Source of the DNA: an uncultured delta proteobacterium
Lineage (GTDB): Bacteria > Desulfobacterota > Syntrophia > Syntrophales > Smithellaceae
Reading direction: 5' to 3'
DNA length: 64,000 nucleotides
Assembly (NCBI GenBank): GCA_963710575.1
Contig: CAVQAL010000003.1
Span: 149,372-213,371 of the forward strand
This document shows positions 10,081 through 64,000 of this stretch, piece by piece. The notes beneath the pieces are model-generated. The model had not been told where the DNA came from. It searched no databases and saw only the letters and a program-made list of their open reading frames with translations. The translations under genes were made by a program, and so were the position numbers. Each line of letters begins with the position of its first letter. The first letter of the stretch is position 1.

Positions 10081-10131
10081 ATTCGCTGAAAACGAGCGTA
10101 GTGAAGTTTGAAGCGTAAATCGAATTATCCC
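10081..10131. repeat. dispersed repeat, inverted and degenerate copy
   Basis: It contains tcgaattatcc, the reverse complement of ggataattcga at 30083-30093. The reverse complement also shows a gcttcaaac..ttcactacgctc..gttttcagc hairpin whose loop resembles the loops of the other copies. Confidence 0.45.
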
Positions 10132-10195
10132 CTGAGCGAAGCGAATGGGGATTTGACACTCGTTGCAAATGAATCCCGCAAAGCGGAGGAGATAT

Positions 10196-47729: not shown

Positions 47730-48875
47730 TTAATCATATTTTCGAAGATAATTCTCAAGCCGGTTTAAGCCTTCTTTAATGTTTTCTATCGAATTGGCGT
47801 AAGAAAAACGTAAAAAACCTTCGCCCGCACTGCCGAAATCAATGCCGGGTGTGACGCCAACTTTTGCCTCTTCAGTAATACGGAAAGCTTCCTTGTAAGA
47901 ATCCGTACAAAAGCGTCGCGCATCGGCAAACACATAAAACGCACCGGTCGGCTCAACATGAATGATAAAACCCATGTCTTTTAATCGCGCCAGCATGTAT
48001 TGGCGTCTTTCGTCATAAATCCTTACCATTTTGGCCACATCTTTTTGTGCTTTGGTTAGGGCGGCAATGCCCGCCCATTGAATAAAGCCGTTGGCGGAAA
48101 TCATAAAATTCTGATGAATCCTCTGCATGACTTTTGAAAATTGCCTGGGGAAAATGCAGTAACCCAGACGCCAGCCGGTCATTGCGTATAATTTGGAAAA
48201 ACCATTGATAACAAAAGCCTTCTCCGTAAATTCTAAAATGGAATGTGCGCGGTCTTTATAGACCAGTCCGTGATAAATCTCATCGGAAATAATGTACTGT
48301 TTGTCAAACTCAGCCATGCTTTGCAATTGGTCTTTGCTCATGACAATGCCGGTGGGATTGGAAGGCGAGTTAATCAAAATCGCCTTGGTCCGGGAAGAGA
48401 GTTTCTTCTTAATATCCTTCGGACGGTATTGAAATCCCTCTTCCGGATAAGTCTTAACCTCTTTATTCTTACCGCCGGTCGCAAGGATAAAGTTCTGGTA
48501 ACAAGGGTAGCGCGGATTGGAAATGATCACTTCGTCGCCACGATCTAAAATAGCCAGCATCGCAAATAATAGAGCGGGAGAGGTGCCGGTAGATATCATA
48601 ACCTGATCTGGCGTAATCTTAACGCCGTACTCCTTAAAATAGAAAACGCATATGGCTTGACGCAGCTCTAGCAAGCCCAAAGCATGGGTATAGCGAGTTT
48701 TGTTATTGCGCAGCGCTTTGGTTGCCGCCTGCGTGATAACTTTCGGTGTGGGAAAATCAGGCTCGCCTACTTCCATGTGGATAACTTTTTCACCTTTACG
48801 CTCCAACTCTTCGGCTTTCGCCATAACATCCATGACAATGAAAGATGTGAATTGGGATGCTCTTTTTGAAATCAT
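47730..48875 (-). CDS. class I/II PLP-dependent aminotransferase (aspartate/aromatic aminotransferase-like)
   Basis: 381 aa. ..NGFSKLYAMTGWRLGY.. carries the PLP lysine motif. Confidence 0.88.
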   Translation of the reverse strand: MISKRASQFTSFIVMDVMAKAEELERKGEKVIHMEVGEPDFPTPKVITQAATKALRNNKTRYTHALGLLELRQAICVFYFKEYGVKITPDQVMISTGTSPALLFAMLAILDRGDEVIISNPRYPCYQNFILATGGKNKEVKTYPEEGFQYRPKDIKKKLSSRTKAILINSPSNPTGIVMSKDQLQSMAEFDKQYIISDEIYHGLVYKDRAHSILEFTEKAFVINGFSKLYAMTGWRLGYCIFPRQFSKVMQRIHQNFMISANGFIQWAGIAALTKAQKDVAKMVRIYDERRQYMLARLKDMGFIIHVEPTGAFYVFADARRFCTDSYKEAFRITEEAKVGVTPGIDFGSAGEGFLRFSYANSIENIKEGLNRLENYLRKYD

Positions 48876-49045: not shown

Positions 49046-49125
49046 TTTTTATTCTCAAAAAATAAAAAACTATTGCTATTAGCACAATTTTGTTACAAAA
49101 TACCTTCGGGTTTGCCAAACCTTTT

Positions 49126-50709
49126 ATGAGCAAGACTGCAAAAAAATCTTTTTCTGAGAAAGAGCGCAATTTGAGTATTCACAGTTATGAAGAATTGGCC
49201 GCATTGCACGCGATAGCTAAAATTCTAGCTCAGCCTCAAGACCTGCGCGACCAACTGGAGCTCGTCCTGCAGGAAATGAGCTCCCGTCTAGGCATGAAGC
49301 GGGGCATGATTTCGCTTCTGGACAGGGAAAAAAAAGAGGCATGGCTCGATATTGCTCATGATGTCAATATTGAAGGAATGGATGTAACCTACAAGCCTGG
49401 CGAAGGTATCACTGGCAAAGTGGCGGAAACAGGCCGCCCCATGGCTGTGGCTAATCTTGGTCAGGCTACTCACTTTTTAGATCGCACCGGCGCCCGCCGT
49501 CATTTAAACAGATCGGAGTTGGCTTTTCTTTGTGTTCCCATTATTTATGATGATAATGTTGTTGGAGTTTTATCAGGTGATAAAGTAGCCTTGGAAGTGG
49601 AAAATCTGGATCGCGAACTGGCCATGCTCTCCTCTGTAGCCGAGCTTATGGCTAAGGCTGTACATATCAGGGGTCTGGAAGAAGAAAACGAAAGGCTAAG
49701 AAAAATTGTCGGCAGTGCGCGCACACCTTCAATAGATATTATCGGCCATTCCAAACCGATGCAGGAAGTGTTCGGTCTGGTGGCTCAGGTATCCGATTCC
49801 AATACGACCGTCTTAATCACCGGTGAAACAGGAACAGGTAAGGAACTGATCGCCAGAGCTATCCATATGAACTCTCCACGACACAAAGGGCCGATGGTGC
49901 AGGTTAATTGTGCGGCTATTCCGGATACACTGATTGAAAGCGAGCTCTTTGGTCATGAAAGGGGGGCTTTTACAGGAGCGCTGCATCAACGCCGGGGGCG
50001 TTTTGAAGAAGCTAATGGCGGCACAATTTTTCTGGATGAAGTAGGCGAGCTTTCCGCTGCCGCCCAAGTAAAGCTTTTGCGCGTTTTGCAGGAAAAAAGG
50101 TTTCAGCCTCTTGGTTCTTCGCGGATTATAAATGTTAATGTCCGCATTATTGCGGCAACAAACAGAGATTTAGAACAAGACATTGTGGCAGAACGTTTTC
50201 GTGCCGATTTATTTTATCGTTTGAATGTTTTCCCTATTTATTTGCCTGCTTTGCGCGAACGGGGCAGCGACATCATTCTTTTGGCGGATCATTTTATTTT
50301 GAAATACAGCAAGGAAATGGGGAAAAATGTCAAAAAAATTTCTACTGCAGCAATAGAAGTATTTCTATCTCACAAATGGCCGGGTAATGTGCGTGAACTG
50401 GAAAACTGCATTGAAAGAGCTGTTCTGCTCTCGCATACCGATACTATTGATTCTTTTCATTTGCCACCGTCTTTACATGTAAGAGAAACTAAAGTGGAGA
50501 AGAAGGAACACAGCAAACTATCTTCTGTTGTCGAAGCGCAGGAAAGATCTTTAATTATTGATACGTTAGAAGCAACCGGTGGGAATCAAACAAAGGCCGC
50601 CAAAGTTTTGGGGACAACAAAACGTATTATGCAATATAAAATCACTAAACTGGGGATTAATCCTAAACTTTTTCGCAAGAAAAATAAAGACGCCGGAGAA
50701 ATCGAGTAA
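49126..50709 (+). CDS. sigma54-dependent transcriptional activator (GAF + AAA+ + Fis-type HTH; NifA-like architecture)
   Basis: A GAF-like N-terminus is present (..[19 protein letters not shown]..). The AAA+ core has GETGTGKE and the GAFTGA loop (ERGAFTGA). The C-terminal HTH reads [22 protein letters not shown]. The start is ATG at 49126 or TTG at 49090. Confidence 0.92.
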
Positions 50710-50913: not shown

Positions 50914-52257
50914 ATGGATACAATACTTACAAAAATACAGGAATTAGCTCTCCTGCATGACAAAATCGACCCCAAGATCGTAAAGGAAAAAAACATCAAA
51001 CTGGGACTGCGGAATGAAGACGGCTCCGGTGTTTTTGTCGGTATTACTAGCAAGGGACAGGTAATCGGTTATGAGAAAATATATCACGGTGACGGCACGG
51101 AAGCGGTGAATCCTGTTCCGGGCAAACTCTTCTATTGCGGTTATGATGTAGAGGACATTATCCGCCAAAAAAAGCAAGATCATCGATTTGGTTTTGAAGA
51201 AACTGTTTATCTTCTGTTAACCGGTGAGCTACCTGATCGAAAGGATTTGAACGCCTTTTCACAATCCCTTGCCAAACGTCGCCCTCTTCCTAACGAAGTC
51301 AAGAAAATGATAAAAAACCATCCTCCCCACGACGATCAAATGGGATCTTTACATACGATCGTTTCTGCCATGCATATTTTCGATAAAGATCCCAATTCCA
51401 CTAATATAAATGATGTGATTCTGCAATGCGTTGACCTCATCGCCAAATTCCCGACCATTATCGCTTACAACTATCTAGCCGTGAAAATGAAAAGACGGGA
51501 ACGGCTGGTACTTCCGGAGCCGTCTTCGGATATGAGTATTGCTGAAACTTTTTTGTATCTGCTCAAGGGAAATACGGCCAGCAGGTCTGTAGCAGAGCTT
51601 TTTGATACAATGCTTATATTTCACGCTGAGCACGGAGGAGGAAACAACTCCACATTTTCCACTCGGTGTGTTTCCTCTGCCGGTGCCAACACCTATATGG
51701 CTATATGCGCCGGAATAGGTTCGCTCTCCGGTCACTTACACGGAGGTGCAAACGTAGCTGTCATGAACATGATTGACGACATCAAAAATAAAGTAAAAAA
51801 CTGGGAAAGCGATGTGCAGGTAAGCGATTACCTCATGAAGATTCTAAATAAAGAGGCCGGCGACAAATCTGGAACAATTTACGGAATCGGTCATGCCGTT
51901 TATACCGTATCGGACCCCCGAGCAATGTATATAGAAAATCAAGCGGGAGAACTTGCGCAATCAACCGGCCGGTTGGATGAATTCAACCTGCTAAAAAAAA
52001 TAGCGCTTATCGCGCCGATTTTAGTTAAAGAAAAGAAACGCAAAACAGTTTGCACGAATGTGGATTTTTATTCGGGATTTGTTTATGAATGCATGGGGAT
52101 ACCCCGGGAACTTTTTACGCCGATTTTTGCACTTGCACGAGTTGTCGGCTGGTCTGCCCACCGGATCGAAGAAATCGTGCAGGGACGGATTATCCGTCCA
52201 TCCTATGTCACTTCATTAAAGGCAAAGAAGAGCTACATTGCCTTGAAAAAGCGTTGA
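50914..52257 (+). CDS. citrate synthase family protein
   Basis: 447 aa with ..LIFHAEHGGGNNSTF.., ..GIGHAVYTVSDPRA.. and ..NVDFYSG.. (catalytic His/His/Asp contexts). Confidence 0.9.
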   Translation: MDTILTKIQELALLHDKIDPKIVKEKNIKLGLRNEDGSGVFVGITSKGQVIGYEKIYHGDGTEAVNPVPGKLFYCGYDVEDIIRQKKQDHRFGFEETVYLLLTGELPDRKDLNAFSQSLAKRRPLPNEVKKMIKNHPPHDDQMGSLHTIVSAMHIFDKDPNSTNINDVILQCVDLIAKFPTIIAYNYLAVKMKRRERLVLPEPSSDMSIAETFLYLLKGNTASRSVAELFDTMLIFHAEHGGGNNSTFSTRCVSSAGANTYMAICAGIGSLSGHLHGGANVAVMNMIDDIKNKVKNWESDVQVSDYLMKILNKEAGDKSGTIYGIGHAVYTVSDPRAMYIENQAGELAQSTGRLDEFNLLKKIALIAPILVKEKKRKTVCTNVDFYSGFVYECMGIPRELFTPIFALARVVGWSAHRIEEIVQGRIIRPSYVTSLKAKKSYIALKKR

Positions 52258-52696
52258 CACTATTCACAGAAATGAACTCTACAGCAAGAACAGGTCATAT
52301 TTATTGGAAATTTATAGGAATAACGATATTAGAAATCAACAAAATAAGAAAAATCCTTAAAAGCAAAAGCTTGTTTAAAGCATAGCGAAACTATTTGATA
52401 ATAATAATTGGTTAACTACCTGTAATTTTATATTGAAGGGTTAACAATAATTGCTTTTAGCATACTTTTGTAACAAAATGCTTTAAGGAGTTAGTGAAAA
52501 GTTCTAAATAATGGTAAATCATGAAAAAACTCCACCGCTTCTCAAAGAATTCTATTTCATTATAAATCCACGAGAAACAACGCATCAATCTCAACTTGCA
52601 AAACTCATAGAATTCACTGGAAATTATCATTCCAGAAGGCAAAGCAATCGGTGTTGGTTAAATTTATTATATAGATTATTGTTTTTCTGTTTAAAT

Positions 52697-52770
52697 TGAG
52701 GGGTCGTCTAAAGGTAGGACAACAGGTTCTGGCCCTGTGAATCGAGGTTCGAGTCCTTGCCCCTCAGCCA
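52697..52770 (+). tRNA. tRNA-Gln (anticodon CTG)
   Basis: Hand fold: TGAGGGG-TC-GTC-TAAAGGTAG-GAC-A-ACAGG-TTCTGGC-CCTGT-GAAT-CGAGG-TTCGAGT-CCTTG-CCCCTCA-G-CCA. The U1:A72 pair is typical of tRNA-Gln. Confidence 0.9.
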
Positions 52771-53410
52771 CATAATTCATTAAATGTTAATGAGTGCCAT
52801 TTGAAAAACTATAAATAATAGTTGAGACAAAAAGAAGAAAATATAAATGAAGAAAAAAGGAAAATATTTACACGCATACTACTTAGTAACGTTCCGTTTG
52901 AAAAATTTGGTAGCATTGCACTTTGTTTTGAAGTGGCCAGATATTAATAACCCGTAAAAAATTTTTCGATTCATCAGAGTTACTTGATCTGAAAGAAATA
53001 GATTTGCTCTTGGTTATGGATTGTCCGGTGAATGAAAATGATAAAAATGAAGATAAGTTTCCGCAACTTGTTTCTGGAAAGCAATTCATTTACAAAGCCA
53101 CCAATTTCTTATGACCTGTCTTAGGCCTTTGTCGTGATGCGCAGCTTATTGCCAGTGCCACATACACCAAGATGTATTGCAATACCATGAAGAAGATTGG
53201 AAGGTTTCCAATCTTTGAAATTTAATTACGATAGTTTACTTTTTGTATTCAAGCCACCAGTTAAAGTATTTCAATGTCATGGTGAGACATTTCTTGTTTG
53301 TTACCAAAAGATGTCATAAACTTACTGAGATACGGATTTCGAAAAGATGAACATGACTTCTTGTAACGATTTGTGAGATATTTTAGGTATATTCCATAAA
53401 GATTAAAAAT

Positions 53411-53730
53411 ATTAGTTGCTATTAGCACAATTTTTTTATAACAAAACTTCCTAAGATTCTTTGAGCCTTATATGAGCAGAATTTTGAGAAAACTATTTGC
53501 CAGGAAAGATACGACCTTAGAGAAGAGGTGAATATACCTTATACACCCGGCTTCCATAAATGGCCGGACAACGTGTGGAAATTGGAAAATTGCATTAAGC
53601 AAGATGTTTTATTATCAAAGACTAATACTATAGATTGCCAGCATCTTTCATCTTCATTGCAAATAGCGGAAAAGGAAATTGAGAAATAAAGATAAAAATG
53701 CTTTCTTCTGTTGTTGAAATTTAAGAAAAA
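53411..53730 (+). pseudogene. internally deleted, degenerate copy of the sigma54 activator gene (5' leader/N-terminus fused to the C-terminal part)
   Basis: 53411-53515 aligns by eye with 49071-49175 (gctattagcacaatt..tatgagca..). 53550-53730 aligns with 50377-50560 (aaatggccgg..gaaaa(y)tgcatt..cttctgttgt). The GAF and AAA+ parts are missing and stops are present. Confidence 0.75.
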
Positions 53731-53858
53731 GTTTAAATTATTTTATCATTCTTTTAAAAAGAACAAATTTGTACTTTTAAAAAAGGGAAATGGGTTTTTT
53801 GATAGCGTAAACAATTAAAAATGAAGAGTTTACAATGATGTAACTTATTTTGTACAAT

Positions 53859-53874
53859 TGGCATGGATCTGGCA
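53859..53874 (+). promoter_or_regulatory. sigma54 (-24/-12) promoter for the mvhD-metF-glt-hdr operon
   Basis: TGGCATGGATCTGGCA. GG at -24 and GC at -12 have exact consensus spacing. It lies 152 nt upstream of the first CDS, with a sigma54 activator encoded 3 kb upstream. Confidence 0.65.
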
Positions 53875-53964
53875 GTAAATATTACCCCTCATGATCTTGT
53901 TATGATCAGGATGGAAAGAATTTTTGGATGATTTATCAAAATATGTATCGTTTGTTTACCGAAA

Positions 53965-53991
53965 CTATGGATGAGATGCTTTCATCCATAG
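53965..53991 (+). promoter_or_regulatory. perfect 10-bp stem-loop in the operon 5' UTR
   Basis: CTATGGATGA-gatgctt-TCATCCATAG followed by TTTGTG. It lies between the sigma54 promoter and the mvhD start. Confidence 0.4.
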
Positions 53992-54025
53992 TTTGTGATA
54001 AATTATAGTGATTTCATGAAAGAAG

Positions 54026-54457
54026 GTGTTACAACTGAATATTCAAATTCCTAAAATATATCTCTTCCATTGTGCAACAAGCTACGATCAAGAAGAATTG
54101 TTGAAAAGTTATTCCCCGAAGGCCATTGAAATTAAAGTAGTATCCTTGCCCTGTTCTGGAAAACTGGACATTCTTTACCTCACTAAAGCATTTGATACCG
54201 GTGTGGATGGTGCCGCCATTCTGATATGCAAAGAAGGCGAATGTCGTTACATGGAAGGTAATATGCGCGCCAGAAAACGGGTACAAGCCGTCGACGAATT
54301 ACTGGAAGAAGCCGGACTCGGAAAAGGCCGGACTAAAATAATTCAGATGGGCGACAAGGGTATAACAGGGGCCATCCATGAGTTAGAAGATTTCTTACTT
54401 CAAATAAAGACAATGGTTGAAAATGCTCCGTCTTTGCCAACATCGCAGACGGAATAG
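54026..54457 (+). CDS. mvhD: MvhD/FlpD-like protein (methyl-viologen-reducing hydrogenase delta-subunit family)
   Basis: ..IYLFHCATSY....VSLPCSGKLDILYLTKAFDTGVDGAAILICKEGECRY.. is the MvhD cysteine pattern. It uses a GTG start. Confidence 0.85.
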   Translation: MLQLNIQIPKIYLFHCATSYDQEELLKSYSPKAIEIKVVSLPCSGKLDILYLTKAFDTGVDGAAILICKEGECRYMEGNMRARKRVQAVDELLEEAGLGKGRTKIIQMGDKGITGAIHELEDFLLQIKTMVENAPSLPTSQTE

Positions 54458-54492
54458 TTTTTCATTAGTCTATGACAGAAGGAGTACAGGGT

Positions 54493-55384
54493 ATGAAACC
54501 TGATAGTAAATTAGCGTTTAAAATCAGCGGTAAAGAGTTTATTGTCACTGCCGAGTATTTGCCTGTTGCCGGTACCGGGTTAACGATTGATCCTAAAATA
54601 TTCGGTAGCGGTGTGACAGCAGTAAACGTAGCTGATAATCATTATGGTGTATCCATTTCCAGTCTGGCAGCCTCTTTCGCGTTGAGTCAGACGGGTATAG
54701 AACCGGTATTTCAAATTATAACAAGAGACCGCAATCGCATTGCGCTGCAGTCCGATCTGCTTGGGAGCCGCTTCTCTCGGTATTAAAAACGTATTGTGCC
54801 TCTCCGGTTTTCACCAGACTCTCATCGGTTGCAATGAATCAGCCAATGTCTTTGATATTGATTCCATTCAGCTAATCGATATGGTTAGAAAGATGAACAA
54901 TGGCGAGTTAATGGACGGTTCAAAAATCCAAGGGAATTTCGGTATGCTGATAGGTGCTGCTGCTAATCCGGATTTGAAGCCGATCGAATTGAATATTTTA
55001 AGGTTAAATAAAAAAATAGCCGCAGGTGCCAATTTTATTCAAACTCAACCTGTATTTGATGTTGATGTATTTAAAATCTGGCTGGAAGCCGTTCACACTG
55101 CAGGGCTTGCCGATAAAGCAGCCATTCTTGCCGGAGTTCTGCCACTCAAGAGTGCTGCCCAAGCCAAAGAGATGATTGAGTTGCATACCGATTTTGTTAT
55201 TCCCGAAACGATCATTAACCGGTTAACGAATGCCGGTGATCCTGATGCTCAGAAAAAAGAAGGCGTTAAAATAGCCGCTGAAATTATAAAGAAGCTAAAA
55301 GATCTTCCCGGACTAAAAGGTGTCCATATTTTATCCGGTGGCAATGAATCAGCTATTAACGAATTATTAGCAGTTATATCTTAG
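54493..55384 (+). pseudogene. metF: methylenetetrahydrofolate reductase (MetF) interrupted by a 1-nt frameshift near 54763-54766
   Basis: ORF 54472-54786 ends ..RDRNRIALQSDLLGsrfsry*. ORF 54740-55384 continues in the +1 frame as ..AASLGIKNVLCLSG... Joined at cttGGGAgcc, they give a continuous MTHFR-like protein of about 297 aa. Confidence 0.8.
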
Positions 55385-55402
55385 TGATTGAGATTTAATA
55401 AA

Positions 55403-56812
55403 ATGCCCAAGAAATATCATATTGAAACCAAAAAGATTGCACCGAGATTACCGAAAAGAGGTAAATTCGGAATTGTTGATTGGCGTGAAGATTGCGCCCG
55501 GTGCAATAATTGCGTGAAAAAGGCTTGTGTGTACGACCGTTACCGGCAGGAAATGCAGTATATCAAAGATCTGGATGAATTTAATGCCATGTTCTTTGAA
55601 TGCATGGGTTGTTTTTCCTGCGTGCAGAAATGTACGAAGGGTCTACTGGCTCTAACCGTAAATCCCGAATACGAACGCATGGGCAATGGTTATTTTACAC
55701 CGGATATTATTCTGACGACTTGGAATCAAGCGGAAACCGCCGGCATTCCTGTTTCCGGTGCCGGATATCGCGGTAAGTTTACAGGTGCCGGATTTGATTC
55801 CATGTGGACGGACATGTCTGAAATTGTCCGTCCGACTCGCGACGGAATTCATGGGCGTGAATACATCAGCACTTCTGTTGATATCGGAAGAAAACCGAAA
55901 TTACTTTCGTTTGAAAACAACGAACTGGCTACTATATTACCACCACTGGTAGATCTGCCGGTTCCGATAATAATTGATATGTTCCCTGAGAAATATCACT
56001 TCCCCAATCTCATACCAATGTTATTGGCTGTTGCCGTTAAAACCGGCACAATGATGATTGTTGATTGGAAACATCACCATCTTTTAGGAGCCTATGAACA
56101 TAATCATTTATCGAATATCATTTTTTATCTTGATAAAGAAACGCCGCTGCCAACGCCTGATATCCTTAAAAAGTTACGCCTTATTGAAATAGCTGACAGC
56201 GATAGAATCGAACAAAGAATAAAGGAGATCAAAACCATTAATCCGGATTTGGTCGTTTCAATCAGAGTTGAACTGGATACTCGCGGTGAGCAAAGATCCA
56301 TAGAGCTTGCTCATCACCCTTGCATTGAAGTCATCCATATCGTGTCCGATATCAACGGTAATCAAACAGCAGTGGAAAAACCTAAATTTATAAAAGATAT
56401 GACCCGGACAATCCATACAACTCTTGTAAAAGAAGGTATCAGAGATGAAATCACTTTGATTGCCAGCGGCGGCATCGCTTTGGCAGAGCATATGGCCAAA
56501 GAGATAATCTGCGGCGCTGACGTCATCACAATCAATATGCCACTGCTAATTGGGCTTGAATGCCGTTTTTGCACAAACTGTCGCGATGGTTTTGCATGTC
56601 CGGCTAAGATTGAGACAATCACCGCCGAGTATGGAATCGGACGCATGACAAATTTAATTGCTGTCTGGCATGACCAACTTATCGAAGTTATGGGAGCTAT
56701 GGGAATGAGAGAAGCCCGCCGTCTGCGTGGCGAGACCGGACGTGCATTATTCTTTGAAGACCTTGAGGAGGAAACCTTTGGAAGGATTTTTGGCAAGAGA
56801 ATCAGGGCTTAA
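55403..56812 (+). CDS. ferredoxin-domain + degenerate glutamate-synthase FMN-domain paralogue
   Basis: N-terminal Cys clusters are present (CARCNNC..C, CMGCFSCVQKC). The segment ..TPDIILTTWNQAETAG.. is homologous to the next gene. The C-terminus reads ..IASGGIALAEHMAKEIICGADVITIN..ECRFCTNCRDGFACP... It lacks the QGAKPGxGG and GGxGGTGA motifs. Confidence 0.75.
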   Translation: MPKKYHIETKKIAPRLPKRGKFGIVDWREDCARCNNCVKKACVYDRYRQEMQYIKDLDEFNAMFFECMGCFSCVQKCTKGLLALTVNPEYERMGNGYFTPDIILTTWNQAETAGIPVSGAGYRGKFTGAGFDSMWTDMSEIVRPTRDGIHGREYISTSVDIGRKPKLLSFENNELATILPPLVDLPVPIIIDMFPEKYHFPNLIPMLLAVAVKTGTMMIVDWKHHHLLGAYEHNHLSNIIFYLDKETPLPTPDILKKLRLIEIADSDRIEQRIKEIKTINPDLVVSIRVELDTRGEQRSIELAHHPCIEVIHIVSDINGNQTAVEKPKFIKDMTRTIHTTLVKEGIRDEITLIASGGIALAEHMAKEIICGADVITINMPLLIGLECRFCTNCRDGFACPAKIETITAEYGIGRMTNLIAVWHDQLIEVMGAMGMREARRLRGETGRALFFEDLEEETFGRIFGKRIRA

Positions 56813-58358
56813 AGAAGTCCTGCCTGAAAATACAATAAAAACTTTGGTACCGCAGGTTGAGATAGCTCGAGAAGTCAAACCAGCACCCTCACGCTATCGC
56901 AATGAGATAGCCAAATACATTATTCGGCGCAGCAGTGATTGCAAACTCTGTGGCAAATGCGCCCAGGTTTGTCCGCGTGGCGTGCACGTATTGAAACCCG
57001 GTTATAAATTATTTTCTGCCCCGCACTTGAATGTTTGTATAGGTCCTTCCTGTCAGAAGACAGACCATTATTGTATTGACCTGTGCCCGAATAAAGCGCT
57101 TCAAATGGTCGAAAATCCGATGTTGAAGTCGATGGGTGACTATCGCTGGACACCGGATATGCTCATGGCTACCTGGAAAATGGCGGAAACCGGGGAAGCT
57201 CCATCACCTGAGTATGGCTACGACTACGAGACGGGAGCTTCTGGTGGCGGGTTCGACCGATTGAGATTCAAGTTTCCCGAAAAACCGCCCGTTGAATTAC
57301 GAGACGATGATATAGATACCAGTATTATACTGAACAGACGAAACGATGGCCGCCCACAAGTGAAAATAGATGTCCCCTGGTACGGTGGTGGAATGTCTTT
57401 CGGTTCCGTTAGTAACGTTGTCCAGCTTTCCAAGGCTCGTGCCGCCACCGCTTTCAATACCTTTACCTGTACCGGTGAAGGCGGTTACATGGAACGCATG
57501 AAACCCTACGATGATCACGTGATAACCCAAATTGCCACTGGTCTTTTCGGCGTTCGGGAAGAGACAATCCAGCGTGTGCGCATTGTTGAATTTAAATACG
57601 CCCAAGGAGCCAAGCCCGGTTTAGGAGGCCACCTTTTAGCCGATAAAGTCACTTCGGCAGTCGCCAAAATGCGTGAAACTGTTCTGGGTATTTCACTCTT
57701 TTCACCTTTCCCGTTTCATAGCGTTTACTCGATTGAAGATCATCAGAAACACATGGATTGGATTAAACACATTAATCGGCGAACCCTGATTGCCACCAAG
57801 GTCTCCACACCTAATGATGTGGATATGGTCGCTGTTGGCAGTTATTCCGCCGGTACCCATATTGTGCATCTGGATGGCGGATACGGCGGAACCGGCGCCG
57901 CGCCTGATATTGCCAAGAAGAATATCGCAATGCCCATCGAATATGCTATCGTTAAAGTCCATCGTTTCCTGGAACAGGAAGGTATTCGTGACAAGGTAAC
58001 GCTGATTGTTAGCGGCGGCTTGCGGACACCTCATGACATTGCAAAAGCAATCGCCTTAGGTGCTGACGGTGTTGTCGTTGGTACTTCCGAACTGGTTGCG
58101 CTGGGTTGCATCAGATGTTCACGCTGTGAAAGCGGTCGCGGCTGTCCGCGCGGCATTGCTACGACCGATCCCGAACTGGCGAAGGATATTGATCTTGACT
58201 GGGGTACACAGCGCGTTATCAATTTGTATTCTGCCTGGCGAAAAGAACTTGTCGATATATTGAAACGGTTAGGACTGCGTAGCGTGAGTGAGTTGCGTGG
58301 GCGTACCGATCTTCTGATGCACCTTGATTATACGAATGATTCGGAGACCCATGCATGA
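56778..58358 (+). CDS. ferredoxin-domain + glutamate synthase FMN-binding domain protein (archaeal-type GltB core)
   Basis: CKLCGKCAQVCP.. is a 4Fe-4S motif. GGGMSFGSVS, KYAQGAKPGLGGHL, LDGGYGGTGAAP, VSGGLRTPHDIAKAIALGADGV and GCIRCSRCESGRGCPRGIATTD are all present. A TTG start at 56778 lies 6 nt after a GAGGAGG Shine-Dalgarno, and the ORF-track start at 56727 is also possible. Confidence 0.88.
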   Translation: MEGFLARESGLKEVLPENTIKTLVPQVEIAREVKPAPSRYRNEIAKYIIRRSSDCKLCGKCAQVCPRGVHVLKPGYKLFSAPHLNVCIGPSCQKTDHYCIDLCPNKALQMVENPMLKSMGDYRWTPDMLMATWKMAETGEAPSPEYGYDYETGASGGGFDRLRFKFPEKPPVELRDDDIDTSIILNRRNDGRPQVKIDVPWYGGGMSFGSVSNVVQLSKARAATAFNTFTCTGEGGYMERMKPYDDHVITQIATGLFGVREETIQRVRIVEFKYAQGAKPGLGGHLLADKVTSAVAKMRETVLGISLFSPFPFHSVYSIEDHQKHMDWIKHINRRTLIATKVSTPNDVDMVAVGSYSAGTHIVHLDGGYGGTGAAPDIAKKNIAMPIEYAIVKVHRFLEQEGIRDKVTLIVSGGLRTPHDIAKAIALGADGVVVGTSELVALGCIRCSRCESGRGCPRGIATTDPELAKDIDLDWGTQRVINLYSAWRKELVDILKRLGLRSVSELRGRTDLLMHLDYTNDSETHA

Positions 58359-60970
58359 ATAACGCAATGATTGAAAAACTGCTGCTTTCCCGTCAGAAAC
58401 TCATCGAAGAGTTACAGATTCCTGAACCCACTTATAAAGGAGAGGAAGAAGGCGGGTGCGGTGTCGTTGGTTTTTGCGCTACTGAACCGATTGCCGCCCG
58501 TCATATTCACGAGCCTTCCCGACAGATGCATAACCGCGGCAACGGCAAGGGTGGCGGAATTGCTGCCTTAGGTTTTATCCCCGAACAGCTCGGAGTTACC
58601 CGTGAAGTTTTAAACGACTATTACATGGTACACATAGCGTTTCTCGATAATTCGATCAGGCAGGAACTTGAACAAAAATATATTACTTCCTGTTTTGAGA
58701 TCAAAGCTTTCCGTCAGCTGGACACAGTTACCGACTGGACTACTATTCCTTCTTTGGAAGCGAAGCCTCCTGATGTCATGCGTTATTTTGTTCGCGTTAA
58801 GCCGGATGTGCTGGATGCCTTTATTTCCAAGAACAAATTAGACGGAATAAGCCGCGAAGAAGCGGAAGGCGAATTCCTAAGCCAGCAAAGCGTTAAGCTG
58901 AATCACGAATATTACGCTTCACTAGGTGATAAAAAAGCGTTCGTCATGTCTTTCGGCAAAAATATTATGATCCTGAAAGTCGTAGGGTACGCGGAGTCCA
59001 TTACCGATTATTATAAAATTGACGATTTGAAGGCTCATGTCTGGATTGCTCATCAGCGGTTTCCAACCAAAGGACGTGTCTGGCATCCCGGTGGTGCCCA
59101 TCCTTTCGGAGCAATGAATACCGCACTGGTCCATAATGGTGATTTTGCCAACTATAGTTCCGTCAGTGAATATCTTGCGCAACGTCATATTTATCCGCAA
59201 TTCCTGACTGATACCGAGGTTTCGATTCAGATATTTGATTTGTTGGACAGGGCCTATCACTATCCGTTGGAGTATATTATCGAAGCGCTGGCGCCTACGA
59301 CAGAAATAGATTTCGATAGACTTCCTAAAGAGAAACAGTCCGTCTATCGGGCAATTCAGGCAACTCATATTCATGCTTCACCGGACGGTCCCTGGTTCTT
59401 TATCATTGCCCATATCCTGGGGACAGCTGACAAATTTCAGCTCATGGGCATTACTGATACCTCAATGTTGCGTCCGCAGGTCTTTGCTTTTGCCGACGGC
59501 GCAGTGCAGGTCGGCTTGATCTGTTCCGAAAAACAAGCAATCGATGCGACATTGCTCAGTATGTCAAAAGATGACAGCCGTATTTGTCCGGTAGCCGACA
59601 AATACTGGAATGCCCGCGGCGGCAGTTCGGCGGACGGTGGATCATTTATTTTTACTCTTGAAAAAGACCAAGCCGGCAAATACCGTATGAATTGTACAGA
59701 CAAATTCGGGGTTCCGGTCAAATTGCCGTCCGGAGCAGAAGTTGTCGATTTATCAAAAGAAATAAATAAATCAGGTGCTGCTACCGATAAGATTGAAAAA
59801 GGACTTCGTGAGAACTTTGAAGCCGACAGTCAAAAGGTTTTTCGTCATATTATCGAAAAAATCGTTGATTGGTCCTTTGCTGAAGTATCATTTGCCTGTG
59901 AAACAGTTATTTCACTGGCTAAAGATTCAAATCAATTTGCCAAAGCAATTGAAATATTGACTCTGCTCAACGACCGGCGATACCCCACCGGCACAAAAAA
60001 ACGTAAGCACATTCTGCAAATCGTTCGCACCGCTTTGCACAAATTGTTTGGCCTTATTCCCTCGATCGGAGAAACATTGGCAAGTGAATTCCGGTCGATT
60101 AATCTTAAAGCGAAGGAACTTTTGAGAGAACCCCAGATTGGGGAGACGACTCTGGTGATCGATGCCCTGGGTTTCCCGCCTGAAGGCAACGAATCGAATT
60201 CCTCGCTTCTAATGAACGGTTACTTTAAAGGCTGGAAACATTTCATTGTTTATAACTGTGCCGGACAACGTTTTACCGGTTGCGGGCTTGGACCTCAAAC
60301 GGATAACGTTACTATCGATGTTTACGGCAGCGATGGCGATTACCTTGCTTCCGGTATTGACGGTCTAACTATTACCGTTCACGGCAATGCCCAGGATCAA
60401 TTAGGTCAGATAATCAAAAGAGGTAAACTGGTTATTCATGGCGACACCGGACAAACATTCTTATACGGCGCCAAAGGTGGTTCTATTTTTGTTTTGGGTA
60501 ATGCTGCCGGCCGGCCTTTGATTAATTCCGTGGGTAAGCCAAAGGTTGTGATCAACGGAACATGCCTGGACTTCCTCGCTGAATCTTTCATGGCAGGCGA
60601 TGTCTTTGCGGACGGCGGTTTTGTTATTTTAAACGCTATAACATTCGATGATAAAGGTAGCTTGATTGATTTGACAGAACCCTATCCGGGCGGCAATTTG
60701 TTTTCGCTTGCTTCCGGCGGCGCCATTTACGTCCGCGATCCTCGCAAATATCTTGTCCGCGAGCAGTTGAACGGCGGCAACTTTTTCAAACTGACAGACC
60801 AGGACTGGGAAACTATCCTGCCTTATCTCGAAGAAAATGAACGTTTGTTTGGAATCAAGGTATATGATTTGCTTACTGTCGACGGTAAACTTAAGCGGCC
60901 CGGTCAAGTCTACCGCAAAGTTGCCCCGGCCAAACTTTCGGGTACCGCACAAATCGAATCGGATGAATAG
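58355..60970 (+). CDS. fusion of a class II (Ntn) glutamine amidotransferase domain and a GXGXG beta-helix domain (GltB domains 1 + 4)
   Basis: ..EEGGCGVVGF.. carries the nucleophile Cys, with AHQRFPTKG and LVHNGDFANY. The C-terminus ..VYGSDGDYLASGIDGLTITVHGNAQDQLGQIIKRGKLVIHGDTGQTFLYGAKGGSIFVLGNAAGRP.. shows GXGXG repeats. An ATGA overlaps the upstream stop. Confidence 0.88.
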   Translation: MNNAMIEKLLLSRQKLIEELQIPEPTYKGEEEGGCGVVGFCATEPIAARHIHEPSRQMHNRGNGKGGGIAALGFIPEQLGVTREVLNDYYMVHIAFLDNSIRQELEQKYITSCFEIKAFRQLDTVTDWTTIPSLEAKPPDVMRYFVRVKPDVLDAFISKNKLDGISREEAEGEFLSQQSVKLNHEYYASLGDKKAFVMSFGKNIMILKVVGYAESITDYYKIDDLKAHVWIAHQRFPTKGRVWHPGGAHPFGAMNTALVHNGDFANYSSVSEYLAQRHIYPQFLTDTEVSIQIFDLLDRAYHYPLEYIIEALAPTTEIDFDRLPKEKQSVYRAIQATHIHASPDGPWFFIIAHILGTADKFQLMGITDTSMLRPQVFAFADGAVQVGLICSEKQAIDATLLSMSKDDSRICPVADKYWNARGGSSADGGSFIFTLEKDQAGKYRMNCTDKFGVPVKLPSGAEVVDLSKEINKSGAATDKIEKGLRENFEADSQKVFRHIIEKIVDWSFAEVSFACETVISLAKDSNQFAKAIEILTLLNDRRYPTGTKKRKHILQIVRTALHKLFGLIPSIGETLASEFRSINLKAKELLREPQIGETTLVIDALGFPPEGNESNSSLLMNGYFKGWKHFIVYNCAGQRFTGCGLGPQTDNVTIDVYGSDGDYLASGIDGLTITVHGNAQDQLGQIIKRGKLVIHGDTGQTFLYGAKGGSIFVLGNAAGRPLINSVGKPKVVINGTCLDFLAESFMAGDVFADGGFVILNAITFDDKGSLIDLTEPYPGGNLFSLASGGAIYVRDPRKYLVREQLNGGNFFKLTDQDWETILPYLEENERLFGIKVYDLLTVDGKLKRPGQVYRKVAPAKLSGTAQIESDE

Positions 60971-61000
60971 TTATTTTATTTCAGGAAAAGAGTATCGAAA

Positions 61001-61570
61001 ATGACGATAAGAATAACAAAACACAAAGCCACCGAAGACTTTTTAAAAGTAGTTCAGGAAAAAGCTGGTGTAAACCTAAGCTCCTGCTACCAGTGTAAGA
61101 AATGTTCCATTGGCTGTCCTGTTGCCGACCAGATCAAGTTGCCGCCTTCCGAGATAATAAGAGGCCTGCAACTCGGCGCTGGTGACGAATTATTAAATAC
61201 GGATCTCATCTGGACATGCCTTGCCTGCGAAACATGTTACGCCAGATGTCCTAATCGGATAAACTTTCCTGCTGTGATTGACGCCTTTAAGTCCATCGCT
61301 TTGGAAAAAGGAACTGCAAAACCGGCAGGTAGCGCACCTTTATTTAACCGTCTATTCCTGAACACGGTGAAGTCTTACGGCCGTGTGTATGAATTGCTGG
61401 CCATTGCCATGTATAAACTGGGCACCGGTAACCTTAAACAGGACATGGGTAAATTCCCCTTGATGCTGAAAAAAGGCAAAATAGCAATTCTGCCTCCGTC
61501 CGGCGCGAACAAAGATAAAATGAAACGTATTTTCAGTAAATCAGCACAAAACAAAGGAATGGAAAAATGA
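61001..61570 (+). CDS. hdrC: heterodisulfide reductase subunit C-like
   Basis: CYQCKKCSIGCP... and CLACETCYARCP are two 4Fe-4S motifs in the HdrC arrangement. Confidence 0.85.
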   Translation: MTIRITKHKATEDFLKVVQEKAGVNLSSCYQCKKCSIGCPVADQIKLPPSEIIRGLQLGAGDELLNTDLIWTCLACETCYARCPNRINFPAVIDAFKSIALEKGTAKPAGSAPLFNRLFLNTVKSYGRVYELLAIAMYKLGTGNLKQDMGKFPLMLKKGKIAILPPSGANKDKMKRIFSKSAQNKGMEK

Positions 61571-62439
61571 GATACGCATATTATCCCGGTTGCTCCGCTC
61601 ATTCTACTGCTCGTGACATGCATGAGTCATGTTTGGCGGTATCAAAAACGCTTGGCATTGAACTCAATGAAATTCACGGCTGGACATGTTGCGGCTCCAG
61701 TGCCGCTCATCAGACAGACCGGAAATTGGCGGTTTCGTTGGCTTCCGCCAACCTCCTTTTGGCCAAACAAATGGGTATGGACATGGTGGTCAATTGCGCC
61801 GCTTGCTACAACCGCTCAAAGACAGCCAATTATGAAATTATTAATTCCGAAAATGCAAGGAAATCGGTTGCCGATAGTCTTGGAGAAACTTATGACGGTT
61901 CGGTTCCTGTACGGCACTTTGTGGAGATACTTTTAAAAGACATCGGACCGGTTAATTTACGCAAGAAAGTTATTAACCCTTTAAAGGATCTGAAAGTGGC
62001 CGCTTATTACGGATGCTACCTTGTGCGTCCGTCGGAAGTAACCAACTTTGACGATCCCGAAAATCCAACAATTATGGAAAGCTTGATTGATGCAATAGGC
62101 GGTACTAATGTGGAGTGGTCAGGCAAAGTGGATTGTTGCGGCGGTATGCAAAATCTTACCCGAACGGAAATTACCGTCAGGCGGTCTGCGGCAGTAATAG
62201 ATATGGCTCAGGCTGCCGGCGCCGAATGTATCGTCGTTGCCTGTCCCATGTGCCAAGTAAGCCTTGATGTCCGGCAGGCTGACATGGAAAAACTTCTCGG
62301 CAGAAAATATAACATGCCGGTTATTTATCTTACGCAGCTAGTTGGTCTTGCTCTAGGACTTTCGCCCGCGGAACTCGGTTTTAACAAACTCATGGTGAGT
62401 CCTTTAGCTTTATTAAATAAAGTCAAAGCAGCAGCCTAG
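61567..62439 (+). CDS. hdrB: heterodisulfide reductase subunit B-like (two CCG domains)
   Basis: It starts MRYAYYPGCS.., followed by ..WTCCGSS.., ..AYYGCY.. and ..VDCCGG.. CCG motifs. An ATGA overlaps hdrC. Confidence 0.88.
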   Translation: MRYAYYPGCSAHSTARDMHESCLAVSKTLGIELNEIHGWTCCGSSAAHQTDRKLAVSLASANLLLAKQMGMDMVVNCAACYNRSKTANYEIINSENARKSVADSLGETYDGSVPVRHFVEILLKDIGPVNLRKKVINPLKDLKVAAYYGCYLVRPSEVTNFDDPENPTIMESLIDAIGGTNVEWSGKVDCCGGMQNLTRTEITVRRSAAVIDMAQAAGAECIVVACPMCQVSLDVRQADMEKLLGRKYNMPVIYLTQLVGLALGLSPAELGFNKLMVSPLALLNKVKAAA

Positions 62440-62490
62440 GAAAAGCTGCTTATTGATAACAGATGATTAACGACTACTTAAGGTTAGAGT

Positions 62491-64000
62491 ATGCATAAAA
62501 GTGAAAAAAAATTAACAGGCGCGGTTCTTGTTCAGGGCGGAGGTATTGCCGGTATTCAGGCGGCCCTGGACCTTGCCGATTCCGGGTTTAAAGTCTATCT
62601 TGTTGAGCGTAATGCGGCTATCGGCGGCATGATGGCACAGCTGGACAAGACGTTCCCCACCGGAGATTGCGCCACCTGTATCGTATCGCCTAAACTTGTT
62701 GAATGCGCCCGCAATATCAATATTGAGATACTTACCCTCGCTGAGCTCGTCGGTTTGGAAGGAGAGCCGGGACATTTTAAAGCTAAAGTTAAGGTTTCTC
62801 CCAGATATGTGGATGAAGCAAAATGCACCGCCTGCGGTCAGTGTACAGACGCCTGTCCGGTCAACGTGCCCAATCCGTTTGACCGTGAAATGGGTACCCG
62901 CAAAGCAATAGCCAAACTCTATGCTCAAGCAACACCGAACAAATTTGGCATTCTCAAAAACGGGCATGCCCCCTGCAAGGTAGAATGTCCGGCAAACATT
63001 AATGTCCAGGGCTACATCCAATTAATTAAGAAGAAGGAATATCTCAAAGCTGTTAATCTTATCCGGGAGCGAAATCCGCTATCTGCTATCTGCGGACGTG
63101 TTTGTACTCACCCTTGTGAAACCGAATGTACACGCAATGATATTGATTCCTCCGTCTCCATCAGATTATTGAAACGTTTCGCTTCAGACCAGGAAATGGA
63201 GATGGTCCGGTCCGGAAAACTGGCTCTGCCGGAAGAGAAGACCCCACCCGCTGGCGCCAAAAAGATTGCCATTATCGGCGCAGGACCTGCCGGCCTTACT
63301 GCTGCCGCTGATCTGGCCGACCGGGGTTATTCTGTGACAGTTTACGAAGCCACGTCTGAGGCCGGCGGCATGCTTCGTTGGGGAATTCCCGCTTACCGTT
63401 TACCGAAAGATGTACTGGGCTACGAAGTTGAGTTGATCCGACGCAAGGGAATCAAGTTCTTCTACAACACGCGTATCGGTGCGGGTATTTCCATGGAAAA
63501 ATTACGCCAGGAAAATGACGCTGTCTTTATCAGCGTCGGCACACAGAGCAGCCGTAATCTTAACGTCGCAGGTGAAGATAAAACCGGAATTGCCTACGGC
63601 CTGGAGTTCCTGCGCCAGGCCGGCGACAAAGATAATCGTCCCAAACTGAGCGGTAAGGTCGTGGTCATCGGCGGCGGCAATGTCGCTGTTGATGTAGCCC
63701 GCTCCGCGATACGCCTCGGCGCCGACTCCGTTGAAATGGTCTGTCTGGAACAGCGTTATGAAATGCCGGCCCTACCCGAAGAAGTTGCCGCCTCTCTCGA
63801 AGAGAACATAAGAATCAATAACGGCTGGGGTCCGAAACGTATTCTCGGAAACAACGAAGTCAGCGGAATCGAACTAAAACGCTGCACAAGAGTCTTCGAT
63901 GAAAGCGGCCGGTTCAGTCCTTCATACAACGAGAATGAAACGACCACATTAAATGCCGATCAAATCATCGTAGCCATCGGTCAGGCAATCGATCAAGAAT
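62491..64000 (+). CDS. hdrA: HdrA-like flavoprotein with an inserted GltD/NfnB-like Fe-S and NAD(P)H module, 3'-truncated by the window edge
   Basis: My translation begins MHKSEKKLTGAVLVQGGGIAGIQAALDLADSGFKVYLVERNAAIGGMMAQLDKTFPTGDCATCIVSPKL.., which is the HdrA N-terminus. It continues ..CKVECPANINVQGYIQLIKKKEYLKAVNLIRERNPLSAICGRVCTHPCETECTR.. and ..KKIAIIGAGPAGLTAAADL..GGMLRWGIPAYRLPK.., which is GltD/NfnB-like. There are no stops to position 64000. Confidence 0.85.
   Translation, partial: MHKSEKKLTGAVLVQGGGIAGIQAALDLADSGFKVYLVERNAAIGGMMAQLDKTFPTGDCATCIVSPKLVECARNINIEILTLAELVGLEGEPGHFKAKVKVSPRYVDEAKCTACGQCTDACPVNVPNPFDREMGTRKAIAKLYAQATPNKFGILKNGHAPCKVECPANINVQGYIQLIKKKEYLKAVNLIRERNPLSAICGRVCTHPCETECTRNDIDSSVSIRLLKRFASDQEMEMVRSGKLALPEEKTPPAGAKKIAIIGAGPAGLTAAADLADRGYSVTVYEATSEAGGMLRWGIPAYRLPKDVLGYEVELIRRKGIKFFYNTRIGAGISMEKLRQENDAVFISVGTQSSRNLNVAGEDKTGIAYGLEFLRQAGDKDNRPKLSGKVVVIGGGNVAVDVARSAIRLGADSVEMVCLEQRYEMPALPEEVAASLEENIRINNGWGPKRILGNNEVSGIELKRCTRVFDESGRFSPSYNENETTTLNADQIIVAIGQAIDQE

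Follow-up and report, generated by a model that had tools for sequence, protein, structure and literature searches.

The locus

Here we describe a gene cluster at the 3′ end of a 64-kb stretch of DNA (hereafter the window; positions 149,372 to 213,371 of contig CAVQAL010000003.1, assembly GCA_963710575.1) from an uncultured delta proteobacterium of the Smithellaceae, in which the parts of a split glutamate synthase (GOGAT) are encoded together with heterodisulfide reductase (Hdr), MvhD, and methylene-tetrahydrofolate (methylene-THF) reductase (MetF) proteins. Positions follow the numbering of the window, which cuts the operon inside hdrL. Eight tightly packed genes lie on the + strand from 54026 to 64000, in the order mvhD, metF, gltBx, gltB-FMN, GATase::GXGXG, hdrC, hdrB, and hdrL, and they open a conserved operon of ten genes, mvhD1-metF-gltBx-gltB(FMN)-GATase::GXGXG-hdrC-hdrB-hdrL-mvhD2-metV. 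The last two genes are seen in the closest species-level relative (L002), a Smithella metagenome-assembled genome whose GATase::GXGXG fusion protein is 87% identical to that of the window. The features of the operon are as follows:

54026–54457, + strand: mvhD1, an MvhD/FlpD-like [2Fe-2S] electron-transfer protein of 143 aa (PF02662, 1.3e-21)
54472–55384, + strand: metF, of the MTHFR family (PF02219, 1e-30 on the joined sequence)
55403–56812, + strand: gltBx, 469 aa, with a 2×[4Fe-4S] ferredoxin domain (Fer4_10) and the C-terminal half only of PF01645 (5e-11)
56778–58358, + strand: gltB-FMN (flavin mononucleotide), with a ferredoxin domain and a full Glu_synthase domain (PF01645, 5e-92)
58355–60970, + strand: GATase::GXGXG fusion, 871 aa, with an Ntn class-II amidotransferase, a helical linker, and a C-terminal beta-helix
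61001–61570, + strand: hdrC-like, a two-[4Fe-4S] subunit (Fer4_8/17; TIGR03290, 1e-16, below cut-off)
61567–62439, + strand: hdrB-like, with two CCG domains (PF02754, 1.6e-20, two stretches)
62491–64000 (window end), + strand: hdrL, an HdrA N-terminus followed by Fer4_20 and Pyr_redox_2, with 503 of ~1489 aa present
Beyond the window, after hdrL, seen in L002: mvhD2 (PF02662, 1.6e-50)
Beyond the window, tenth and last gene, seen in L002: metV (PF12225, 2e-37)

An earlier annotation of this DNA (the original prediction) had named the eight co-oriented genes and their order, and all of them are present by Pfam and by translation of their open reading frames (ORFs). The order stands; a 1-nt insertion that splits metF into two ORFs had gone unmentioned. 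Of the families that it expected, PF02662, PF02219, PF01645, PF01493, and PF02754 were all found, whereas PF00310 (GATase_2) stayed below its cut-off in the fusion. The two ATGA stop/start overlaps that it pointed out are at 58355–58358 and 61567–61570, and the remaining junctions are gaps of 14, 18, 30, and 51 nt, or overlap. Terminator-like sites across the operon region number 13, vs. 13.6 expected in shuffled sequence, so there is no excess.

A conserved order of ten genes

The fusion gene was searched for in one genome per species, which returned at least 571 loci, and gene order was compared by tblastn with all products in the best 80 of these, each from a different GTDB species. The full ten-gene order is found in 33 fully covered loci of the 80, and a further 19 fit this order but are partial, truncated, or circularly permuted. 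Carriers of a complete or compatible order thus make up at least 52 of the 80 loci and span at least seven phyla, including Chloroflexota, Planctomycetota, Verrucomicrobiota, Acidobacteriota, and Spirochaetota; the loci are labeled as Syntrophia/Smithella, Syntrophorhabdus, Dehalococcoidia/Chloroflexia, Phycisphaerae/Sedimentisphaerales/Pirellulales, Verrucomicrobiota, Leptospiraceae, Acidobacteriota, Armatimonadota, and Anaeromyxobacter. The original prediction had named conservation of the neighborhood as its own test, and the recurrence of the gene order is far beyond chance. It had also remarked that metV is absent from the sequenced part, and metV is indeed the tenth gene, following hdrL and mvhD2 in L002 and in all 33 complete-order loci. 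Genes 3′ of metV show no conservation across loci, which indicates that the operon ends there. In addition, the identity of partner genes to those of the window tracks the identity of the fusion (Spearman 0.72–0.86), and metF and metV are held apart across phyla by the interposed glt and hdr genes (eight genes counted). In two loci (L029 and L034) the order is circularly permuted to fusion-hdrC-hdrB-hdrL-mvhD-metV-mvhD-metF-gltBx and onward, with every neighbor preserved, which speaks for selection of the ten genes as a unit.

More distant relatives (56–58% identity) form a modular series of cluster versions. The unit mvhD-gltBx-gltB-fusion stands alone in five loci (L061, L065, L070, L072, and L080), is accompanied by metV in two, and has metV-metF on either side in ten. 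The ten loci with metV and metF beside the glt genes have no hdrC or hdrB match, and L046, one of them, has a second mvhD and an hdrA-like gene that lacks the insert. From this series, the invariant unit is MvhD plus the three Glt proteins, with MetV, MetF, and HdrCB-HdrL-MvhD2 as add-on modules; mvhD1 stands before the glt genes in almost all loci, minimal versions included.

Such modularity could also reflect two independent enzymes in one operon, a ferredoxin-dependent split GOGAT (MvhD1, GltBx, GltB, and the fusion) and a Moorella-type MetFV-HdrCBA-MvhD methylene-THF reductase, although we regard this as decidedly unlikely. The core does occur alone in the five loci above, MetFV-HdrABC-MvhD occurs in acetogens, and the run hdrC-hdrB-hdrL-mvhD2-metV has the same order as hdrCBA-mvhD-metVF, which we take to be the arrangement in Moorella. 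Yet metF and metV lie eight genes apart, with the interleaving kept across phyla and in the circularly permuted loci; ten loci without an hdrC/hdrB match still have MetV and MetF beside the glt genes; the divergence of the modules is correlated; and the MetF of the window's clade is without an equivalent of residue D120 (see below), which would be odd for a dedicated C1 enzyme. We favor a single complex, whose parts are considered in turn below.

The fusion family is large, with >7,600 relatives among 90%-identity clusters, the named ones being called “glutamate synthase” and occurring in Smithella, Syntrophorhabdus, Dehalococcoidia, and Chloroflexota. Its slow evolution is indicated by a 50%-identity library, in which it has just 259 clusters at E ≤ 1e-30. 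Giant proteins of 1.0–3.2 kaa (P0265, P0283, P0312, P0337, and P0275) match fusion residues ~150–830 with 30–39% identity. One further sequence, L001 (1–8527; ENA contig_151675), is 99.1% identical to window positions 58753–64000. Its fusion and hdrL genes are disrupted by 10 indels, and the sequence that precedes a junction within its fusion gene is unrelated. L001 probably stems from the same population, through an assembly that was error-prone or chimeric.

A split glutamate synthase core

Judged by its motifs, the core is a split, archaeal-style glutamine:2-oxoglutarate amidotransferase (GOGAT) in which the catalytic motifs, those of the GATase and the FMN and 2-oxoglutarate (2-OG) residues, are intact and GXGXG is present. 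The largest ORF of gltB-FMN begins at 56727, and its likely start is a TTG at 56778 that follows AGGAGG. The product aligns to residues 853–1170 of the GltS alpha subunit of A. brasilense (2vdc_A, E 2e-52) and keeps Gln934, Lys937, Arg957, and Cys1102/1108/1113 (GltS alpha numbering), plus one extra Cys; Lys937 and Arg957 are presumably the counterparts of the 2-OG ligands K972 and R992 of the Synechocystis enzyme. Upstream, the translation of mvhD1 has Cys16, Cys43, Cys68, and Cys73.

In the fusion, the C-terminus is recognized as GXGXG (PF01493, 3.3e-15, above cut-off), with a profile that matches the beta-helices of GltS and FwdC. The Pfam signal of the amidotransferase half is marginal (GATase_6, 2e-6, 28.2 bits against a 27-bit cut-off), and by sequence the N-terminal half has no significant match in the PDB. 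The Ntn motifs are nevertheless invariant in the 49 sequences compared (C35GVVGF, H59NRG, H233QRFPTKG, H260NGDFANY, and T285DTE), and the AlphaFold2 (AF2) model, with a mean predicted local distance difference test score (pLDDT) of 75.5, finds GltS alpha as its best Foldseek matches (E 1e-12 to 1e-8), followed by PurF, AsnS, and FwdC. For Cys35 to be exposed, a predicted 34-residue pro-peptide would have to be cleaved off; GltB pro-peptides are of similar length.

GltBx is probably a divergent, non-catalytic Fe-S subunit. It shares 23% identity with its catalytic paralogue GltB-FMN, keeps the CxxCxxCx5CP loop, and is without the QGAKPGxGG/2-OG segment. Its homologues are also 469 aa long, its profile aligns to GltS alpha residues 977–1164, within the FMN domain, and the core of its model is an FMN-oxidoreductase-type TIM barrel (low confidence; AF2 pLDDT 64). 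We considered whether GltBx could be the central domain of GltS and found no support for this, as the profile falls on the FMN domain and Foldseek gives only generic FMN/IMPDH barrels. In none of the products does Glu_syn_central (PF04898) have a match, apart from 56 residues of local similarity within the FMN domain.

A third paralogue resembling Glu_synthase (~540 aa, with a partial PF01645 match and no NCBIfam model) lies at 3805–5424 of L009, and adjoins amtB, glnA, or the cluster in eight loci (L009, L021, L023, L061, L062, L070, L072, and L078). More distant GltB-like matches are present downstream of metV in L005, L007, and L008.

The Hdr module

The HdrB translation shows both CCG motifs with their flanking Cys (non-cubane [4Fe-4S] sites), and matches TIGR03288 over its full length (1e-62, 212 bits), under the 345-bit equivalog cut-off. 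No DsrC-like or thiol-cofactor gene occurs among those of the locus that recur or are annotated. The third subunit is of the HdrL type, as the original prediction of an hdrA with a GltD/NfnB-like insert had anticipated. Residues 4–167 of the window HdrL match residues 134–301 of the HdrA2 model, and the insert, an NfnB/GltD-like module for NAD(P)H, flavin adenine dinucleotide (FAD), and 2×[4Fe-4S], begins at ~62962. In the complete protein of L002 (1489 aa), the insert interrupts HdrA after its N-terminus, and the remainder of HdrA is followed by a second HdrA-like half with FAD and ferredoxin parts (1050–1489). The whole protein matches HdrA (5odc_A) with E 7e-174 in four stretches, and its residues 160–565 match NfnB (4ylf_B) at 1e-78 (268 bits) vs. 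GltD at 3e-47 (164 bits). The insert carries the NAD(P)H-type motif GGGNVA and has the bifurcating NfnB as its best structural relative. HdrL thus holds two HdrA-type FAD domains and an NfnB-like FAD module, and is without the N-terminal Fe-S domain of methanogen HdrA.

A module of this kind need not be coupled to energy conservation. The Hdr/MvhD/MetFV and GOGAT proteins could form a complex that passes electrons from NAD(P)H (or ferredoxin) to the FMN with no ferredoxin being reduced, and the homology of the insert to the subunit through which NADPH normally enters GOGAT would fit this, as would the GOGAT core without Hdr in other lineages, with Hdr then being one donor module among several that could be exchanged. 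We consider such an uncoupled wire unlikely. Classical GltD does the same job alone at ~50 kDa, a three-flavin HdrL of 1489 aa together with HdrB, HdrC, and two MvhD proteins is hard to rationalize without coupling, and characterized HdrABC systems bifurcate electrons (PMC5861303). A complex in which Hdr couples the electron supply remains the reading that we prefer.

MetF

In the window, metF is broken into two ORFs (54472–54786 and 54740–55384) by a 1-nt insertion at ~54761, CTGC[T]TGGGAGCC. Four relatives (L002, L005, L006, and L008) are without the insertion and have an intact MetF of ~296–303 aa. The window MetF is 81% identical to its L002 orthologue, where the neighboring genes are 77–94% identical, and because MetF is as similar as its neighbors, the insertion reflects an error in sequencing or else a lesion (pseudogene) of very recent origin. 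An exact-protein look-up for a second copy of this metF returned only L001 (8.5 kb) and L082 (a 2.9-kb fragment), neither of which spans the frameshift.

We aligned 52 cluster MetFs, 33 in the window's clade and 19 outside it, with E. coli MetF (in a sequence whose motif agrees with PDB alignments). The equivalent of Glu28, the general acid in E. coli, is conserved in all cluster MetFs aligned. Mutagenesis has shown that Asp120 of E. coli is central to the folate half-reaction. At the D120 position, the window has Phe and all 33 aligned clade loci have Tyr, Phe, or His, and Asp is retained in 17 of the 19 loci outside the clade (Ala in L053, Arg in L066). For this operon, the loss of D120 and the frameshift appear to weaken the idea, raised in the original prediction, of a hub involving methylene-THF. 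However, MetF is conserved like its neighbors, which implies that it still has a role, and its probable role in this clade is that of a flavin relay or scaffold, not of a second catalytic acceptor.

Nitrogen-assimilation context

The original prediction had proposed a nitrogen theme, which is borne out by the flanks of the simpler cluster versions. These are flanked, in the same orientation, by glnA, amtB (13 loci), P-II, gdh, nadE, and carAB, and the flanking glutamine synthetases are of type I, above the TIGR00653 equivalog cut-off. Flanks with glnA, amtB, P-II, gdh, and carAB are a signature of ammonium assimilation, which argues against a role like that of N-methylglutamate synthase.

This context bears on a further possibility, that of a direct link between folate and glutamate, in which the oxidation of methyl-THF by MetFV feeds GOGAT, or in which the enzyme carries out a non-GOGAT reaction (N-methylglutamate-synthase-like, or glutamate oxidation in reverse). 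The glt genes have MetV and MetF beside them even where hdrC and hdrB are missing, and the distant clade keeps the catalytic Asp in MetF. Thermodynamically, the CH3-THF/CH2-THF couple (−200 mV) could reduce 2-iminoglutarate, and MgsABC, the N-methylglutamate synthase, is built from the same three domain types. On the other hand, the neighboring ligases are type-I glutamine synthetases and not gamma-glutamylmethylamide synthetases, every motif for glutamine hydrolysis and 2-OG binding is still present, the window's clade has lost D120, and amtB, P-II, and carAB point to ammonium assimilation. We looked at MgsABC in particular and rejected it on the type of the ligases, on the context, and on the absence of N-methylglutamate dehydrogenase (mgd) genes among the recurrent or annotated flanks. 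The folate–glutamate link as a whole is, in our view, improbable, and ammonium assimilation through a GOGAT complex is the context in which we interpret the cluster.

Regulation and surroundings

The operon is preceded by several features that may contribute to its control and by genes that fit its nitrogen context:

47730–48875, − strand: aminotransferase class I/II (PF00155, 9e-62)
49090–50709, + strand: sigma-54 enhancer-binding protein, with GAF, Sigma54_activat (2e-72), and Fis-type helix-turn-helix (HTH_8) domains, a candidate activator of the operon
50914–52257, + strand: citrate synthase (PRK14032, 2.5e-157, above cut-off)
53755–53784, + strand: dyad AAAAAGAACAAATTTGTACTTTTAAAAA, ~90 nt upstream of the −24 element, a candidate activator-binding site (upstream activating sequence, UAS)
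53859–53874, + strand: predicted sigma-54 −24/−12 promoter, TGGCATGGATCTGGCA, a 10/12 match

Scored against the consensus TGGCACG-N4-TTGCA (12 positions, both strands), TGGCATGGATCTGGCA is the sole site with at least 10 of 12 matches on either strand of the 64 kb. Relatives were scanned at 59 loci: L002 has TGGCACGACTTTGGCA (11/12), 190 nt upstream of mvhD, and L035 has TGGCATACATTTGGCA (9/12), each with an activator gene nearby as in the window, and the motif is absent in the other 57. The sigma-54 control that had been predicted is therefore backed by a unique motif and an activator gene in the window, but the motif does not extend beyond the window, L002, and L035, and we regard such control as plausible but lineage-specific (Smithella/Syntrophaceae). 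The activator gene, which lies between the aminotransferase and citrate synthase and had gone unmentioned, is NifA-like without being an equivalog (TIGR01817 nifA, 8e-147, 490 bits, less than the 529-bit cut-off), and an orthologue with 87% identity stands upstream of the cluster in L002. A block at 53750–53875, with the promoter and ~110 nt upstream of it, is near-identical in L002, in contrast to the surrounding intergenic DNA, which has diverged. In the Smithella lineage, the operon would be turned on by sigma-54 together with a NifA-like, GAF-domain activator. The UAS typical of NifA (TGT-N10-ACA) was also considered and dismissed, with 8 sites in the window vs. 10 expected and none upstream of the promoter.

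A sigma-70-like TTTACA-18-TACAAT (10/12) at 53829–53858 abuts the sigma-54 element; such matches are not enriched over shuffles, and dual promoters are possible. The ~150-nt leader between the promoter and mvhD contains a 15-bp perfect hairpin (53962–53994) without a conserved counterpart in L002. In folding, the leader surpasses 200 of 200 shuffles (z = −2.45), and an Rfam search of the window found only two tRNAs and no riboswitch in the leader.

The aminotransferase also has an orthologue that adjoins the activator gene in L002. Citrate synthase has no match between the activator gene and mvhD in L002, nor in the related loci scanned. A tRNA-Gln(CTG) at 52697–52770 lies between citrate synthase and the operon, followed at 52986–53292 by the decayed remnant of a class-I glutamine amidotransferase, within a stretch of 33% GC (52000–54000). 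The remnant has an in-frame stop, a frameshift, and an active-site GICLGAQ that now reads GLCRDAQ; an intact orthologue is found directly upstream of mvhD in L004–L008. Elsewhere in the window, a RecD2/TraA-like helicase gene (9949–11782) adjoins tRNA-Gly, and GC and AT skew switch sign near 12 kb. The rest consists of housekeeping genes (infB, nusA, hisD, murA, msbA, lpxB, lpxD, bamA, ssb, and a class-II aminoacyl-tRNA synthetase of the D/K/N type), a set typical of a Gram-negative chromosome.

Proposed mechanism and meaning

The cluster is well supported as a conserved genetic unit, for which we hypothesize a bioenergetic role. Our leading interpretation, to which we give about an even chance, is that of one complex in which the split GOGAT is wired into a MetFV-HdrCB-HdrL-MvhD module with an Hdr-mediated electron supply that most probably bifurcates. 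We favor one complex because the genes are interleaved and co-inherited, which makes it the most parsimonious arrangement. Bifurcation proper is a more tentative proposition, which we hold to be possible rather than probable: glutamate synthesis would be the exergonic, high-potential branch that drives the reduction of ferredoxin (Fd) from NAD(P)H, and the enzyme would represent a new HdrA-based class. We propose this because of the analogy with HdrABC complexes and with MetFV-HdrABC-MvhD of Moorella, and because the potential of NAD(P)H (~−320 mV) is midway between those of ferredoxin (~−500 mV) and of the 2-OG + NH4+/glutamate couple (~−100 to −140 mV). The heterodisulfide of methanogens, at −140 mV, occupies the same position as the latter.

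According to this scheme, NAD(P)H would enter at the NfnB/GltD-like insert of HdrL, and its electrons would be split at an HdrL flavin. One branch would run through HdrC/HdrB, MetV/MetF, and MvhD to the ferredoxin domains of GltBx and GltB and on to the FMN, and the other would lead to ferredoxin. The Ntn-amidotransferase half of the fusion would free ammonia from glutamine, and the FMN/Fe-S subunit GltB would reduce 2-iminoglutarate to glutamate, so that the very exergonic synthesis of glutamate pays for the reduction of ferredoxin. The overall reaction would be:

2 NAD(P)H + Fd(ox) + Gln + 2-OG -> 2 NAD(P)+ + Fd(red) + 2 Glu

Several points weigh against this interpretation. Minimal clusters exist without hdr and sometimes without metFV, which implies that the GOGAT core can work without them, presumably with ferredoxin. 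HdrB and HdrC both fall under the NCBIfam equivalog cut-offs, and the disulfide-reducing clusters of HdrB have no explained role in the scheme. MetF is frameshifted in the window and its D120 equivalent is lost, which makes the function of one proposed member of the complex uncertain. Finally, the flux through GOGAT is biosynthetic and small, so that bifurcation would bring only a modest energetic gain.

Nitrogen enters biomass mainly through GOGAT, whose reaction is strongly exergonic, and in the known enzymes this energy is lost. If the module bifurcates, glutamate synthesis would be a new class of acceptor for flavin-based electron bifurcation, and energy-starved anaerobes, such as syntrophs and the Chloroflexota, Planctomycetota, and Verrucomicrobiota of peat and sediment, would recover energy from nitrogen assimilation. 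It would also explain the supply of reduced ferredoxin in syntrophs that lack Rnf, and would provide a concrete precedent and a testable handle on the second substrate of the Moorella-type MetFV-Hdr complexes. Even without bifurcation, the cluster represents a widespread and uncharacterized bacterial form of glutamate synthase. Current annotation scatters this enzyme over “glutamate synthase”, “ferredoxin”, and “heterodisulfide reductase”, and metabolic reconstructions mis-assign it.

Comparison with known systems

The closest parallel on the Hdr side is the MetFV-HdrABC-MvhD complex of Moorella thermoacetica, which, in the summary given in PMC5861303 (citing Mock et al. 2014), oxidizes NADH with a second acceptor that has not been identified, and in which the reduction of methylene-THF has been proposed to drive the reduction of ferredoxin. 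As far as that summary describes the complex, it and the operon share the same six families (MetF, MetV, which is past the window end, HdrA, HdrB, HdrC, and MvhD), NAD(P)H as the likely donor, and an HdrA with more than one FAD. Unlike the Moorella complex, the operon has three glutamate-synthase genes and a second mvhD, a 1489-aa HdrL with the NfnB-like insert and the second HdrA-like half, a clade MetF with Tyr/Phe/His at the D120 equivalent (frameshifted in the window), and relatives that are situated in a nitrogen-assimilation rather than a Wood–Ljungdahl context.

On the GOGAT side, the operon resembles GltBD of A. brasilense (1ea0, 2vdc, and 6s6s) and the ferredoxin-dependent Fd-GltS of Synechocystis (1ofd) in its Ntn motifs, in an FMN barrel with the 2-OG Lys/Arg and Fe-S cysteines, and in GXGXG, and shares with GltBD a GltD-homologous NAD(P)H/FAD/2×[4Fe-4S] module. 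In contrast to both, its enzyme is distributed over three polypeptides, with the GATase fused to GXGXG and no Glu_syn_central detected; its FMN subunit has an extra Cys in the cluster loop (CxxCxxCx5CP) and N-terminal ferredoxin domains; a non-catalytic FMN-domain paralogue is added; and the GltD-like module is embedded in HdrA. Split glutamate synthases are known from archaea, along with a putative F420-dependent GltS (PMC9012536), and from anaerobic Firmicutes, where “domain 1/domain 2” GOGAT genes stand beside glnA (PMC7306483, PMC7282089). In these, too, the GltB domains are individual proteins, the FMN subunit carries a domain of ferredoxin type, the donor is presumed to be of low potential, and the genes lie near those of glutamine synthetase or are regulated with them, but the operon differs from them in the GATase::GXGXG fusion, GltBx, the MvhD partner, and, in this clade, MetFV and HdrCB-HdrL. 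In the searched literature, no purification of such archaeal or Firmicutes split GOGATs was found.

HdrA proteins with an insert have been described as HdrL of Desulfobacterium autotrophicum (PMC2702500), as the NfnB-inserted HdrA9–11 of ANME-1 (PMC9012536), and as “type III” GltD-inserted HdrA (PMC12054007). Like the operon's HdrL, they hold a GltD/NfnB-like domain of ~450–500 aa, are followed by mvhD, and have NAD(P)H as their proposed substrate; unlike the operon, their loci adjoin dsr, fdh, or methane-metabolism genes, and none of the three papers reports an inserted HdrA together with catalytic subunits of glutamate synthase. A similar logic has been proposed for the “succinate operon” of Pseudoclostridium thermosuccinogenes, in which Flx-Hdr and fumarate reductase would drive the reduction of ferredoxin (PMC7282089). 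There too, a high-potential reductase and an NADH-oxidizing Hdr module share one operon, which differs in having fumarate reductase as its acceptor and FlxABCD as its NADH module, and which is also uncharacterized biochemically. In the paper on Ca. Smithella cisternae, an HdrL-like gene appears twice, once under “gltD” and once at the head of an “Hdr/Flox” cluster, and this double labeling shows how such genes are mis-assigned.

The original prediction knew of no characterized complex with this composition. In agreement with this, no description was found in the searched full-text literature (subscription literature being outside the search), and the PDB holds nothing close to the fusion, GltBx, or HdrL beyond generic families. 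Each part of the operon belongs to a known family, and it is their combination for which the searched literature gave no counterpart.

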